IMG/VR virus record: IMGVR_UViG_2541047816_000006
Span: 1-10,967 of that record
DNA: 10,967 nucleotides
Source of the DNA: a virus
Lineage: Duplodnaviria > Heunggongvirae > Uroviricota > Caudoviricetes
Reading direction: 5' to 3' (one strand)
Part shown: positions 1 to 10,724 of the stretch, piece after piece
How the letters are laid out: every line of letters starts with the position of its first letter
Position numbering within the stretch: the stretch's first letter is position 1
The notes under the pieces: generated by a model
What the model was told of the DNA's origin: nothing
What the model saw: the letters and a program-made list of their open reading frames with translations, nothing else
The model's database searches: none
Position numbers and translations under genes: made by a program

Positions 1-3839
<3,839 letters not shown>

Positions 3840-3861
3840 TCATCAGTTGCTGCTATGGAAT

Positions 3862-4185
3862 ATGGTTGACAGTCTGATTAAAACATTAATAGCCATTCTA
3901 ACAATCCCACTGGTTTTCTGGTTTATGAAGAAGCAGTGCCAAAGAGTTGAGACAGGTAAAATCGGTGATGAAGGATACTCATGGGAGAGGGGAAATCCCA
4001 AATACAGGCCGACAATGGTTTGGGATAGCAAAGGAGATATTAACCTTCTTATCATGCCATTGGTTGGAGTTTTGACTCTGTGGGGGATTTTTATTATTGG
4101 TGTAGTAACCAATATGACTTGGTTAAAAATTTGGCTGGCCCCAAAGCTTTACCTTATCGAATATGCAGCATCATTGGTTAAGTAA
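3862..4185 (+). CDS. Small hydrophobic protein with two predicted transmembrane helices (about 107 aa), moron-like cargo
   Basis: ORF in a visibly AT-rich stretch; hydrophobic segments LIKTLIAILTIPLVFWF and LLIMPLVGVLTLWGIFIIGVV; strong terminator immediately downstream. Start uncertain (TTG 3847 or ATG 3862); the frame stays open back to the IS100 boundary (in-frame stop at 3790..3792 inside the IS). No clear Shine-Dalgarno sequence. Confidence 0.45.
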   Translation: MVDSLIKTLIAILTIPLVFWFMKKQCQRVETGKIGDEGYSWERGNPKYRPTMVWDSKGDINLLIMPLVGVLTLWGIFIIGVVTNMTWLKIWLAPKLYLIEYAASLVK

Positions 4186-4189
4186 TTTC

Positions 4190-4215
4190 AGGCCGCATAG
4201 TCGGCCTTTATTTTT
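4190..4215 (+). terminator. Rho-independent terminator
   Basis: Perfect 6-bp stem aggccg / cggcct with loop catagt, followed by ttatttttg; begins 5 nt after the stop codon at 4183..4185. Confidence 0.7.
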
Positions 4216-4244
4216 GGCATAAACAACAGAATAAACACTGCACT

Positions 4245-4272
4245 GTGTATTCATTCCAACGAGTGAATACAC
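4245..4272 (+). promoter_or_regulatory. Perfect 9-bp-arm inverted repeat (candidate operator or RNA hairpin)
   Basis: gtgtattca - ttccaacgag - tgaatacac; arms are exact reverse complements with a 10-bp spacer; sits in a non-coding stretch between two terminators. Confidence 0.4.
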
Positions 4273-4334
4273 GGAGCAATGTCGCTCGTAACTAAACAGG
4301 AGCCGACTTGTTCTGATTATTGGAAATCTTCTTT

Positions 4335-4360
4335 GCCCTCCAATGTGAGGGCCTTTTTAT
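4335..4360 (+). terminator. Rho-independent terminator
   Basis: Stem gccctc / gagggc with loop caatgt, followed by ctttttat. It lies inside the six-frame-track ORF 4320..4595, which argues that ORF's upstream start is spurious. Confidence 0.6.
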
Positions 4361-4424
4361 ATGCATACCAATAACGCTTCACTCGAGGCGTTTTCGTTAT
4401 GCAATCAAACAGAAGGAGCATCCT

Positions 4425-4595
4425 ATGCAACAGTTCGCTATTGCAGGGGCGGCATCGGTTCGCCCTTTCAACCCGATTTTATCGGTACAGCATTCACGAA
4501 AAAACATTTTAACCGGAGCAGACTTTAAACAACCAAGAATGAAAAGTTTGCTCGAAAAGCTTTGGGATATTTTGAAACAACAAGGCCGTCCATGA
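4425..4595 (+). CDS. Hypothetical small protein (56 aa)
   Basis: ATG preceded by AAGGAG with 6-nt spacer; stop overlaps the next ATG (ATGA at 4592..4595). First gene of the plus-strand operon. Confidence 0.45.
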   Translation: MQQFAIAGAASVRPFNPILSVQHSRKNILTGADFKQPRMKSLLEKLWDILKQQGRP

Positions 4596-4699: not shown

Positions 4700-4988
4700 T
4701 AAGCGTGAAATATCGCAAATAATCGCAAGTTTTACTGATGAAGATTACGAACGAATTAACAGTGAAGTTGATCGCCTCTGCAAACGTTGCGACCCAATAA
4801 GCGAAATGCTTCGCTCATATAAACCAGATGAACACACTAAGGACGCTATCGACTGGCTGGAAGATGATGACTGTAACTATCAGGAAAAAGCCGCTGAATG
4901 GTTCTGGGATGCAATAACCGAAAGAGTTAAGGCTGAATATGCCTTCGCAATATTTAAACGCAGACACATTTTTGGAGAAGCAGCATGA
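4677..4988 (+). CDS. Hypothetical acidic protein (103 aa) translationally coupled to recT
   Basis: Two in-frame ATGs preceded by AGGAG; stop overlaps the recT ATG (ATGA at 4985..4988). No family recognised. Confidence 0.6.
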   Translation: MMILTLNDKREISQIIASFTDEDYERINSEVDRLCKRCDPISEMLRSYKPDEHTKDAIDWLEDDDCNYQEKAAEWFWDAITERVKAEYAFAIFKRRHIFGEAA

Positions 4989-5896
4989 GCAATATCGTTG
5001 AATTCGTTAAACAGCAAGAGCAGTTATTCTGCGGAGCATTGACTGAACAGACGGTGACATGGGCTAAGGAAAGCCAGTTTGCAATTCAGTATTTCCAGAA
5101 AAACGATTACCTGGCTAAAACAGCACTGGCAAATCCAACCAGCGCACAGAACGCCATCATCAATGTTGCGGCGATCGGCATCACCTTAAACCCTGCAAGC
5201 AAACTGGCTTATCTGGTTCCGCGCGATGGCATGGTTTGCCTTGATATCAGCTATATGGGATTGCTCCATATTGCAATGGAGTCTGGTGTTATCTCATGGG
5301 GTCAGGCAAAACTTGTTCATGCTAACGATACCTATGAGTCAAACGGGCTTGATAAAGCACCAACCCATAAATACAACGCCTTCGGTGATCGTGGTGATAT
5401 CGTTGGCGTTTACTGCACAGTTAAGACGCCGGCAGGTGATTATCTAACGGAAGAGATGAGTCTGGCTGAAATTGAGGCTGTAAGGAAAACAAGCAAGGCA
5501 GCATTCAGCGATAAAGGACCATGGGTAAATCACTGGAATGAGATGGCGCGAAAGACGGTCGTAAAGCGTGCAAGCAAGTATTGGCCTAAGGCATCACGTC
5601 TTGATAGTGCTATTCACGTACTAAACGAAGAAGAAGGTGTATGGACTGAACCAGTTATGCCGCACAAATCAGAGGAAGATATCCGCGAAGATGAACGGAA
5701 ACGCCAGCAGGAAATAACGGATAAAGCACAACTTCTTTGTGATGAAATGGCTCAGGCAGAAAACATGGATGATTTGAAGCGATATTTTGCAGAAGCATAT
5801 CGCCTGACATCTGGAATGAAATTGCAGCAGAACATACAAGCCATTTACATAGAATGCAAAGCGAAACTGGAGGTTGCCAGTGAGCAAACTGTATGA
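4985..5896 (+). CDS. recT: RecT-family single-strand annealing recombinase (303 aa)
   Basis: Segment KGPWVNHWNEMARKTVVKRASKYWP closely resembles the conserved GPWVTHWEEMAKKTAIRRLFKYLP region of Rac-prophage RecT as I recall it; size typical. Confidence 0.88.
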   Translation: MSNIVEFVKQQEQLFCGALTEQTVTWAKESQFAIQYFQKNDYLAKTALANPTSAQNAIINVAAIGITLNPASKLAYLVPRDGMVCLDISYMGLLHIAMESGVISWGQAKLVHANDTYESNGLDKAPTHKYNAFGDRGDIVGVYCTVKTPAGDYLTEEMSLAEIEAVRKTSKAAFSDKGPWVNHWNEMARKTVVKRASKYWPKASRLDSAIHVLNEEEGVWTEPVMPHKSEEDIREDERKRQQEITDKAQLLCDEMAQAENMDDLKRYFAEAYRLTSGMKLQQNIQAIYIECKAKLEVASEQTV

Positions 5897-6362
5897 AATA
5901 GCTAATGAATACGCAAAATTGATGGATTCAGATTTAGAACCAGAGATGATTGCTGACACAATAGAAGGCATGGAAGGAGAATTTACCGATAAAATAGAGC
6001 AACTTCTCGCCATTATTAAAAATGAATCTGGTTATGCTGAACGCCTCAAGGAAGAGGCAAAGTCACTAAATGAGCGAGCCGCAGTAATTCAAAATAAGAT
6101 TGACAGCATCAAATCATATATAGCGTCATCGCTTGAAATGGTTGGCAAGAAAAAGATTCGAGCAGGTATTCACCAGGTAACAATCCGCAAACCGTCAGAA
6201 ACTGTAGAAATCATCGACTCAAGCGCCCTTCCTCCTGAATACGTTGAGTTTGAAACGACAATTAAAGCCGACAAGTTGGCAATCAAACACCAACTAAAAG
6301 CAGGAATAAATATCCCCGGTGCTCAACTCAAAGTTGGGAAACCTTCACTTCTTATCAAATAA
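5880..6362 (+). CDS. Coiled-coil protein, Gam-like / Siphovirus-Gp157-like recombination accessory (about 160 aa)
   Basis: Immediately after recT, overlapping its stop; GGAGG 6 nt upstream of GTG 5880 (track start is TTG 5874). Coiled-coil N-terminal half and C-terminal region resemble small proteins commonly paired with recT; family assignment is tentative. Confidence 0.55.
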   Translation: MSKLYEIANEYAKLMDSDLEPEMIADTIEGMEGEFTDKIEQLLAIIKNESGYAERLKEEAKSLNERAAVIQNKIDSIKSYIASSLEMVGKKKIRAGIHQVTIRKPSETVEIIDSSALPPEYVEFETTIKADKLAIKHQLKAGINIPGAQLKVGKPSLLIK

Positions 6363-6373
6363 CGATATCGCCT

Positions 6374-6688
6374 ATGAAAAAGACTCCTTGGGAGAAATGG
6401 GAAGTCGATTTCTTGCGCGAAGTAGCGGCAACAATGCCAGTTGAAGTTATCGCTGAAAAACTGGAAAGGACTGAAAAAGCAGTAATGGCGAAAGCAACAA
6501 GGATTGGCGCTGACATTGTTAGCCGACTTCGTGGAAGACGCTGGACAAGAGCCGAAGTATCACTTTTCGGTAAGTTCTCCGCAGAAGAAATAGCAATTGC
6601 AACCTGCCGCTCAATTTATTCAGTGAGAGCTATGCGATACAAGCTAAAAAAACTCGATGAAGAAAGAGCAGGCATACGAATAAATTAA
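6374..6688 (+). CDS. Hypothetical protein with internal tandem duplication of a helix-turn-helix-like module (104 aa)
   Basis: Two similar halves: WEKWEVDFLREVAATMPVEVIAEKLERTEKAVMAKATRIG and WTRAEVSLFGKFSAEEIAIATCRSIYSVRAMRYKL; weak ribosome-binding site. Confidence 0.55.
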   Translation: MKKTPWEKWEVDFLREVAATMPVEVIAEKLERTEKAVMAKATRIGADIVSRLRGRRWTRAEVSLFGKFSAEEIAIATCRSIYSVRAMRYKLKKLDEERAGIRIN

Positions 6689-7147: not shown

Positions 7148-7626
7148 AACAAATGTCACTAATTGAGATGGATGGATTTCTGAAAGGTAAATGCATCCCA
7201 CGAGATTTAAAGGTTAACGAAACAAACGCTGAATATCTGGTGCGTAAATTTGCTGAAGCGGAGGCCAAGATTTCGGCTCTGTACGAAGACCACCAGAAAG
7301 CGATTGAGTCAATTAAGCAGGCTGATGCAGCTGTTAAGTTGGCACACGAGAAGTTTTCGGCGCTGGCAGCAGAGAATACGGAGCTTAAACAGTCGGAGAA
7401 GGAATTTAATAACTTCTGTCGTCAGGAGTACTACGGTTGGGAGGACAACTTCACGGAAACCCCAGCCACCGACGCTTTCCTGGCTGAAATTGAACGCAAA
7501 GCAATCCGCAAGTTCATTAACAGCATTGAACACATCCTGCGTGACAAGTTGTCACCGTATGACACCGAAGAGATGCTTGAGGCTATGCGTATTTTTCTGG
7601 AAGAACAGAGTGGTGAGCAAAAATGA
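7144..7626 (+). CDS. Hypothetical coiled-coil protein (160 aa)
   Basis: ORF coupled on both sides by ATGA overlaps; central region predicted coiled coil ([51 protein letters not shown]). Confidence 0.6.
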
Positions 7627-9382: not shown

Positions 9383-9928
9383 ATGACCACTATAACCGAT
9401 AAGAAACAGTATCCAGGCGAGCAATATCTTAATGAGCTAATCACCAACATAGAGTTTGCTGCAAGGGCACCAGTTGAAGTCGTGAGAGCGATGGCAGCAG
9501 AGCTACGGAAGCGGCGCGAAGCTGATAGTGCAGAACCTGTAAGCCAAACTTACAAGTTGCCTCCCCTGTCATCCAGCGAAGTAAACGACGCGGCATGGAA
9601 ATTACACAACATGCTGACTGAACACGGCCCGCTAAATGGGCGTCAGTTCAACAATCTGAAAGGTTGCTTCTATGAGGCATTAAAGGTCGCAATGCGCAAC
9701 TATCCGGTAATTCCGGATAGTTGGATAAGCTGTAGTGAGCGAATGCCGGATACCAAAACAGCCGTTCTTGTTGCCAGGGAGTTTGACAGGAAAGGTGACT
9801 GGCGAATGAAATGGGCGACTTACATCCCGGGGCATCCTGACGCTAATGATGGGTGGGTAATACCTGGTGCGTCGTGGATACCATCACACTGGATGCCGCT
9901 ACCAGAACCGCCGCAGGAGGCAAAATGA
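9383..9928 (+). CDS. Hypothetical protein (181 aa) with DUF551-like C-terminus
   Basis: ATG 9383 preceded by AAGGAGAGTGAT; C-terminal WISCSERMPD...GASWIPSHWMPLPEPP resembles the DUF551 signature found in lambdoid ea-region proteins (from memory). Confidence 0.6.
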   Translation: MTTITDKKQYPGEQYLNELITNIEFAARAPVEVVRAMAAELRKRREADSAEPVSQTYKLPPLSSSEVNDAAWKLHNMLTEHGPLNGRQFNNLKGCFYEALKVAMRNYPVIPDSWISCSERMPDTKTAVLVAREFDRKGDWRMKWATYIPGHPDANDGWVIPGASWIPSHWMPLPEPPQEAK

Positions 9929-10469: not shown

Positions 10470-10472
10470 CAA

Positions 10473-10500
10473 TCCTCGCACTCGCGGGGATTTCTTTTAT
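10473..10500 (+). terminator. Rho-independent terminator (intra-operon)
   Basis: Stem tcctcgc / gcgggga (7 bp, one G-U wobble), loop actc, followed by tttcttttat; begins 4 nt after the stop at 10467..10469. Confidence 0.5.
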
Positions 10501-10541
10501 CTGAACTCGCTACGGCGGGTTTTGTTTTATGGAGATGATAA

Positions 10542-10709
10542 ATGCACTTCCGAGTCACAGGTGAATGGAATGGAGAGCCATTCAACAGAGTTATCGAAGC
10601 AGAGAACATCAACGACTGCTATGACCACTGGATGATATGGGCGCAGATAGCACATGCAGACGTAACCAATATTCGAATTGAAGAACTGAAAGAACACCAA
10701 GCCGCCTGA
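10542..10709 (+). CDS. Hypothetical small protein (55 aa)
   Basis: Read by hand: MHFRVTGEWNGEPFNRVIEAENINDCYDHWMIWAQIAHADVTNIRIEELKEHQAA; GGAG 7 nt upstream of the ATG; stop codon sits inside the terminator hairpin. Confidence 0.4.
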   Translation: MHFRVTGEWNGEPFNRVIEAENINDCYDHWMIWAQIAHADVTNIRIEELKEHQAA

Positions 10710-10724
10710 TGGCGGTTTTTTATT
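10698..10724 (+). terminator. Rho-independent terminator upstream of the excisionase gene
   Basis: Stem gccgcc / ggcggt with loop tgat, followed by tttttatt. Confidence 0.6.

Follow-up and report, generated by a model that had tools for sequence, protein, structure and literature searches.

The window, which is the whole stretch of 10,967 nt that was analysed, starts on the minus strand with an N-terminally truncated gene for an endosialidase (K1-type) tailspike (1-1836), which is abutted by a complete IS100 element (1837-3794) carrying istA (1927-2949) and istB (2946-3728). PADLOC matches 2946-3728 to DrmD (PDLC02630, full-length, E 5e-96), an assignment that was rejected: the product is the IstB of IS100 (Pfam IstB_IS21, E 8e-112) and the window has no defence gene there. 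Homology to an intact lambdoid prophage resumes only at 3795, directly after IS100 and about 20 codons into a 149-aa ORF, so cI, pL, N and all other sequence past the tailspike gene as far as the middle of the early-left operon have been lost. No complete E. coli genome record covers at least 80% of window positions 1-4200, which hold the IS100 junction. In annotated relatives the plus strand corresponds to the early-left (pL) operon, which runs from the N side to cIII, recT, xis and int, and the window keeps on this strand a cIII-like ORF (4425-4595, 56 aa, without Pfam match), RecT (4985-5896) and Gp157 (5874-6362).

The terminator-bracketed unit and its features

Upstream of the cIII-like ORF lies the unit 4217-4360, which an earlier note had described as a candidate small RNA or operator between two plus-strand intrinsic terminators. 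Both terminators were recovered by a terminator scan, with stems at 4190-4207 (tail TTATTTTTGG) and 4335-4352 (tail CTTTTTATAT), but a third plus-strand hairpin at 4373-4392 was missing from the list in that note. The whole stretch 4186-4362 folds as RNA with a z-score of -5.1. The features of the region are the following:

4190..4217, plus strand: upstream intrinsic terminator, AGGCCG-CATAGT-CGGCCT and then TTATTTTTGG (terminator scan, RNA folding)
4218..4234, plus strand: unstructured spacer rich in CA and A, CATAAACAACAGAATAA (upstream contexts compared in 234 loci)
4235..4282, plus strand: precursor hairpin, an imperfect stem of 22 positions with a CAAC loop, whose core is the palindrome 4245-4272
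4274..4360, plus strand: homolog of the small RNA PreS/LPR1, 87 nt (lambda NC_001416, complement 34011..33924)
4274..4287, plus strand: SL1 (GAGC-AAUGUC-GCUC), the stem-loop at the 5' end of mature PreS, unchanged in all 22 family representatives
4295..4312, plus strand: SL2 (AACAGG / CUUGUU), which covaries across the family (RNAalifold)
4309..4326, plus strand: seed region TGTTCTGATTATTGGAAA, PreS nt 36-53, identical to lambda
4335..4360, plus strand: Rho-independent terminator of PreS, equivalent of lambda tL2a, GCCCTC-CAATGT-GAGGGC and then CUUUUUAU, with a stem that covaries in the family
4373..4392, plus strand: third hairpin with a U-run (AACGCTTCACTCGAGGCGTT-TTCG) (terminator scan, alignment to lambda)

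The first terminator ends a 5'-truncated ORF (3847-4185). The spacer that follows is one of about 28 alternative upstream contexts found among related loci and lies outside the conserved module. The third hairpin starts 13 nt past the PreS tail and is followed by the cIII-like ORF; its lambda homolog, directly before cIII, is taken to be tL2b. In the window this hairpin is joined straight to the PreS terminator because ea10 is absent.

The earlier note had seen no convincing ORF in the unit, and this holds. The sole ORF, 4279-4374 (31 aa), is initiated by ATG and might be read as a small-protein gene, but its GGAG is poorly placed, 2 nt before the ATG, the end of the ORF differs in lambda, and the P22-type half of the family, which keeps the RNA structure and the seed, no longer has the ATG (AATATC). 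Because of this loss the unit is considered non-coding, and the probability that it encodes a protein is practically nil.

Identity with the lambda small RNA PreS

By its sequence the unit is already known, as it is a copy of PreS (LPR1), the small regulatory RNA of phage lambda described by Silverman, Nashef, Bruner, Noy and Melamed (bioRxiv 10.1101/2024.10.31.621285). The lambda PreS sequence was defined from the cloning and T7 primers in Table S5 of that preprint (GAGCAATGTC...GGGCGATTTTTTA). The copy at 4274-4360 is identical to it in 83 of 88 positions with one gap, and its 94% identity places it within the homology criterion used by the preprint (at least 92% identity and at most 3 gaps). 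Nucleotides 1-69 are identical, and the copy differs from lambda solely in the terminator loop, which has A for G, and in the tail, which is CUUUUUAU in the window and GAUUUUUUA in lambda; the stem 4335-4352 is followed by CTTTTTAT, with a U run of 5 instead of the 6 of lambda. Similarity to lambda extends upstream of the small RNA. It starts at 4203 with DNA that lies just downstream of ral in lambda, and 153 of 159 positions are shared between window 4203-4360 and the lambda ral-ea10 intergenic sequence. The operon position is also collinear with that of lambda, since the copy lies on the pL-transcribed strand, upstream of cIII, the kil-side genes and recT. The window and lambda thus share an identical seed, a place in the pL operon upstream of cIII and a tL2a-type terminator, whereas the window lacks ea10, has its PreS terminator fused to the cIII leader, and has lost the pL, N and cI region, which makes expression doubtful.

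In lambda, PreS is enriched on and dependent on Hfq, is seen as a form of about 88 nt and a processed form of about 68 nt, and has its 3' end at the tL2a terminator of the pL operon. It is expressed on prophage induction and lytic growth, only upon pL derepression, and not in lysogens. PreS opens the dnaN ribosome-binding site, which leads to more synthesis of the sliding clamp, represses alaS, and supports phage DNA replication and spontaneous induction (bioRxiv 10.1101/2024.10.31.621285). By sequence identity, activation of dnaN and repression of alaS can be inferred for the copy in the window, and the terminator 4335-4360 is expected to form its Hfq-binding 3' end.

The short non-coding plus-strand RNA that the earlier note proposed is therefore this known small RNA, and it ends at the terminator 4335-4360 as supposed. 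Its length was overestimated at 100-150 nt, because PreS starts past the palindrome and the mature RNA has about 87 nt, and it has no promoter-like site of its own. In a consensus scan no sigma-70-like site was found between 3795 and 4274, and nothing promoter-like within 400 bp on the plus strand. The unit could otherwise be an independent primary transcript with its own promoter, in which the hairpin would be the 5' stabiliser of a small RNA of about 130 nt. Such 5' hairpins are common stabilisers of small RNAs, the unit is bracketed by terminators, and the hexamer TTGGCA at 4214-4219 resembles a -35 element. This hexamer was rejected as a -35, since it has no acceptable -10 at 16-18 bp. The northern bands in lambda are at about 88 and 68 nt and not at about 130 nt, and they appear only upon pL derepression (bioRxiv 10.1101/2024.10.31.621285). 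The segment upstream of the hairpin is also not conserved, as the approximately 28 contexts found there are in many cases coding, with a stop codon 3-5 nt before the hairpin. An independent transcript is thus very unlikely.

PreS has no Rfam family. The whole window gives 0 Rfam matches at the gathering threshold, and a permissive scan of 4150-4450 gives chance-level matches only (E > 1). The seed and its reverse complement are absent from the supplements of Tree et al. 2014, which cover EHEC small RNAs, and from the literature searched, and the Pas sRNA preprint, in which an earlier name for the locus was sought, has no mention of cIII, ral or ea10.

The alignment of the family shows an invariant SL1, a covarying SL2, a conserved core UUCUG(A/G)UUA and covarying terminators. 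In SL2, 14 of the 22 sequences have AU at pair 26/40 and the other 8 have GC, while pair 27/39 is GU, AU or GC (RNAalifold). The core of the seed, UUCUGRUUA, is single-stranded and conserved family-wide. The seed in the window holds the M1 site CTG (4313-4315), which is involved in dnaN pairing, and the M2 site GAA (4323-4325), which is involved in alaS pairing; both were tested in lambda by compensatory mutation, with primers P838/P839, P888/P889 and P970/P971 (bioRxiv 10.1101/2024.10.31.621285). RNAduplex with full-length PreS and the dnaN region returned long uninterpretable duplexes, and exact complementary blocks were used instead. Against the dnaA-dnaN junction of MG1655 the seed has two perfect complementary blocks, the 11-nt TGTTCTGATTA and the 12-nt AAATCTTCTTTG, of which TGTTCTGATTA lies about 17-27 nt upstream of the dnaN AUG. 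PreS 4309-4335 resembles an interrupted antisense of the dnaA 3' end and the dnaN leader of MG1655, with the 11-nt and 12-nt blocks separated by 4 nt in PreS and by 8 nt in the host. Judged from complementarity, this arrangement could reflect a bipartite interaction extending beyond the block that was mutated, or descent from captured host sequence.

The hairpin upstream of PreS in the window and in related phages

The palindrome to which the earlier note had drawn attention, GTGTATTCA-N10-TGAATACAC at 4245-4272, has 0 mismatches and occurs once in the window. In first-order Markov simulations, perfect 9-bp inverted repeats with a spacer of 3-20 nt occur at a mean of 0.83 per 11-kb sequence, and 49% of the sequences have at least one. 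Despite this chance rate the palindrome is considered real, because of its extension, its folding z-score, and its conservation and covariation in homologous loci. It extends to a stem of 22 positions, 4235-4256 with 4261-4282, which has 82% complementarity and is the longest inverted repeat in the window, and RNA 4230-4287 folds at -24.9 kcal/mol (z -6.4), with 0 of 200 shuffles as good.

The palindrome lies immediately 5' of PreS +1, and the 3' arm of the hairpin includes PreS nt 1-9. PreS +1 (G4274) pairs with C4243, and this pair adjoins a conserved A.A mismatch (4242/4275). The GAGC of SL1 has therefore two partners, since it pairs in the precursor hairpin with the upstream GCAC (4240-4243). 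The primer that was used in lambda for full deletion of PreS retains ...GAGTGAATACACG and deletes from GAGC onward (bioRxiv 10.1101/2024.10.31.621285). The 5' end of lambda PreS is given by these authors' cloning boundaries and by the northern size of about 88 nt, so +1 could lie a few nucleotides away from its apparent place at the hairpin base.

Related loci were collected from IMG/VR with two anchors, the seed for some and, for the rest, the 5' stem-loop of a diverged variant, which gave 234 loci. A stable hairpin (dG at most -10) adjoins GAGCAAT in 230 of them. The stem belongs to at least five unrelated sequence classes at the same position, namely v1 GUGUAUUCA, v2 UAUAGCAGA, v3 AAUGACCA, v4 AAUGCGGA and v5 UAUCGACU, which sit between near-invariant flanks, GCAC upstream and GAGCAAU downstream. 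Covariation was measured on an alignment of 25 distinct hairpin variants with a 16-pair structure, with slid and shuffled controls. Standard pairs occupy 93.5% of the cells, against 24-48% when the partners are slid, and at 9 of the 16 stem pairs both partners have changed. Covariation scores 0.578, where slid controls score at most 0.10, and 0 of 500 shuffles reach 0.578; because the classes were probably exchanged by recombination, this covariation represents about 5 independent alleles and not 25. A double change within a class was seen once (AGCAGA/TCTGCT to AGCTGA/TCAGCT). The stem has U.G wobbles at three of its positions, and for 21 of the 25 variants the plus strand gives the better fold. 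The +1 G-C pair lies between the conserved A.A mismatch and, in 16 of the 25 variants, a second non-standard pair. The hairpin is thus kept and covaries in the homologous phage loci, and what is conserved is a plus-strand RNA structure and not a DNA sequence.

The same comparison bears on the other suggestion of the earlier note, in which the palindrome would be the DNA operator of a dimeric helix-turn-helix repressor and a remnant of the regulatory region. The perfect 9-bp inverted repeat has the form of such an operator, and some small proteins of the locus show weak HTH-like similarity, for example the product of 6374-6688 (HTH_12, E 4e-4, below the Pfam cutoff). A sequence-specific operator is ruled out, however, because unrelated stem sequences at the same position still pair, with arms that vary among the at least five classes while the flanks are near-invariant. 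On the other strand the U.G positions would read as A.C mismatches, and the symmetry of duplex DNA does not depend on them. The half-sites are centred 19 bp from each other, nothing promoter-like lies close by, and the same sequence lies in lambda between ral and ea10, far from the known operators. The operator has hardly any probability left, and the palindrome is the core of a structure-conserved RNA hairpin in the precursor transcript.

A different role for this RNA hairpin would be protection of the 3' end of the mRNA of the upstream gene, in which case its proximity to PreS +1 would be incidental and the 5' end of PreS would be cut independently of the stem, by RNase E or another enzyme. 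This would fit the position of the hairpin, which starts 3-5 nt past the stop (GAATAA or TGA) of varied upstream ORFs, and also the free variation of the stem sequence, as for a purely structural protector. The hairpin, however, stays with PreS while the upstream genes change in about 28 contexts, and the basal pairs 6/37, 4/39 and 3/40, which are formed by the invariant PreS +1, +3 and +4, are conserved in 24 of the 25 variants. Since invariant PreS nucleotides form these pairs, PreS sequence is part of the hairpin structure. Protection with only incidental proximity to PreS is unlikely, and a role as 3' protector and a role in PreS processing are not mutually exclusive.

Proposed maturation, mosaicism and comparison with other small RNAs

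The reading that explains the region best as a whole, with a probability of about 85%, is that of a PreS copy with a precursor hairpin that acts as the maturation signal of the 5' end, preserved here as a probably silent relic. That PreS is cut from the pL transcript is inferred because no promoter-like site is present, the stems are variable, and expression in lambda tracks pL derepression; variable stem sequences also leave no conserved -10 or -35 in the upstream hairpin. In intact phages the upstream terminator 4190-4217 would end the upstream gene and be read through under N antitermination. In the resulting polycistronic pL transcript, the hairpin 4235-4282 would be the signal that fixes the 5' end of PreS, and endonucleolytic cleavage at the hairpin base would free PreS. 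After cleavage, GAGC (+1 to +4) would leave the upstream GCAC and re-pair with GCUC (+11 to +14), which would make SL1 flush with the 5' end, and the single-stranded seed could then pair with host mRNAs. A covarying hairpin that overlaps the first PreS nucleotides offers in this way a concrete hypothesis for the excision of the small RNA from the pL operon. The position of the 3' end at tL2a, which would have to come from N-antiterminated polymerase, counts against this explanation.

A typical RNase III site is a double-stranded RNA of about two helical turns, in many cases with an internal loop where the strand is cut, and cleavage is rnc-dependent and leaves 2-nt 3' overhangs. The mismatch-flanked +1 G-C pair resembles the internal-loop class of these sites. 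RNase III is favoured as the nuclease because of the long stem and of this pair between conserved mismatches, but it is a guess, which as leading candidate still has somewhat less than an even chance. In the window and in lambda the stem, which contains A.A and C.A mismatches, is 22 positions long; most other variants reach only 14-17 positions, fewer than expected of a classical E. coli RNase III substrate; a stem-guided cut of the RNase E type is possible. No nucleotide-resolution mapping of the 5' end and no statement on 5'-end biogenesis, RNase III or a PreS promoter was found in the preprint (bioRxiv 10.1101/2024.10.31.621285). The literature search returned nothing relevant on sites at which the pL transcript is processed, by RNase III or otherwise, nor on the hairpin.

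The copy in the window may be poorly expressed or a silent relic, as deduced from the gene arrangement, because the IS100-associated deletion took pL, N and cI and because the terminator 4190-4217 stands between IS100 and PreS. With the promoter region deleted, the biology of this particular copy is probably vestigial.

The region is widespread. Of 5426 complete E. coli genomes, 2251 have it by BLAST, as do 373-387 phage records, among which are lambda, phages of the HK and mEp types, Stx phages and P22-like phages of Salmonella. A 15-nt seed query against 596 Gb of genome contigs gave 120 chance matches in unrelated taxa and was too short. Hairpin, PreS and terminator form a discrete mosaic module that is shuffled among the approximately 28 upstream contexts, which comprise many ORFs. 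The downstream contexts of the cassette vary as well, being ea10, a direct fusion to the cIII leader as in the window, or other genes, and the ea10-less fusion to the cIII leader is present in 49 of 119 lambda-type loci. The hairpin classes assort with both types of small RNA body.

The second body type is a diverged variant that surfaced as matches of 80-90% identity in the P22-like Salmonella phages ST104 and L. This P22-type PreS-like RNA lies upstream of gene 17 and c3, at 1198-1301 of locus L244 (ST104) and 600-703 of locus L245 (phage L), and occurs in about 114 IMG/VR loci. It shares SL1 with PreS, its SL2 covaries, its seed core is UUCUGGUUA, and its terminator (GCCGCUC...GGGCGGC) is another one. 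Its identity to PreS is about 84% over 55 nt, below the 92% cut-off of the conservation survey in the preprint, and no description of it was found in the literature searched. Two further IMG/VR loci, L060 and L102, have hybrid small RNAs with a lambda-type 5' half and seed up to GGAAATC, followed by a P22-type 3' half and terminator, which places a recombination breakpoint inside the small RNA just past the seed. Another IMG/VR locus, L292, has only the 20-nt SL1 anchor GAGCAATATCGCTCGTAAC, without upstream hairpin and without PreS body, and this match is probably unrelated or a fragment.

Taken further, the hairpin, PreS and its terminator could form a dedicated cassette, in which a hairpin of hypervariable sequence guides a structure-dependent nuclease to excise PreS, SL1 refolds, and the same arrangement serves the wider family, including the P22-type RNAs, in a general control of dnaN. 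This extension is tentative and somewhat doubtful. If it is true, the retention of UUCUGRUUA in the P22-type subfamily would make dnaN control a general strategy of lambdoid and P22-like phages. A modest novelty may be claimed for the covarying precursor hairpin and for the P22-type subfamily with its conserved core seed, which are undescribed in the literature searched. PreS, a phage small RNA that reprograms host DNA replication, was here recovered independently from raw sequence, which makes a terminator with nothing coding upstream a workable cue for phage small RNAs.

Other prophage small RNAs share part of these properties. DicF, from the Qin prophage, is produced when RNase E and RNase III process the dicA-ydfABC-dicF-dicB operon transcript. 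Like PreS, it is a prophage-encoded, Hfq-dependent and trans-acting small RNA inside a polycistronic early operon; it is freed by endonucleolytic processing without a promoter of its own, which is what is proposed for PreS. DicF has no sequence similarity to PreS and its targets are ftsZ and others, while those of PreS are dnaN and alaS. AgvB and AsxR (RF02702 and RF02703), the anti-sRNAs of EHEC prophages, are also prophage-encoded, bind Hfq and have Rho-independent terminators, but they sponge host small RNAs, whereas PreS pairs directly with mRNAs; neither RF02702 nor RF02703 is among the Rfam matches up to E = 10.

KilS (ncRNA b4833, NC_000913), from the Rac prophage, occupies an analogous early-left site between the sieB region and kil and ends in an intrinsic terminator. 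It is found at 7406-7503 on the minus strand of locus L366, which corresponds to NC_000913 1418405-1418502, between the sieB region and kilR. Unlike PreS, it has no visible sequence homology and lacks the anchor motif. No paper on KilS was found in the literature searched, and the K-12 Rac prophage has no PreS homolog. Lambdoid early-left operons may in general have a slot for a small RNA ahead of kil and cIII.

Farther along the window, a perfect inverted repeat with 11-bp arms, CAACTATCCGG-N5-CCGGATAGTTG, lies at 9697-9723, and strong terminator-like hairpins of the plus strand are clustered near the right end, at 10471-10522 and 10699-10718.
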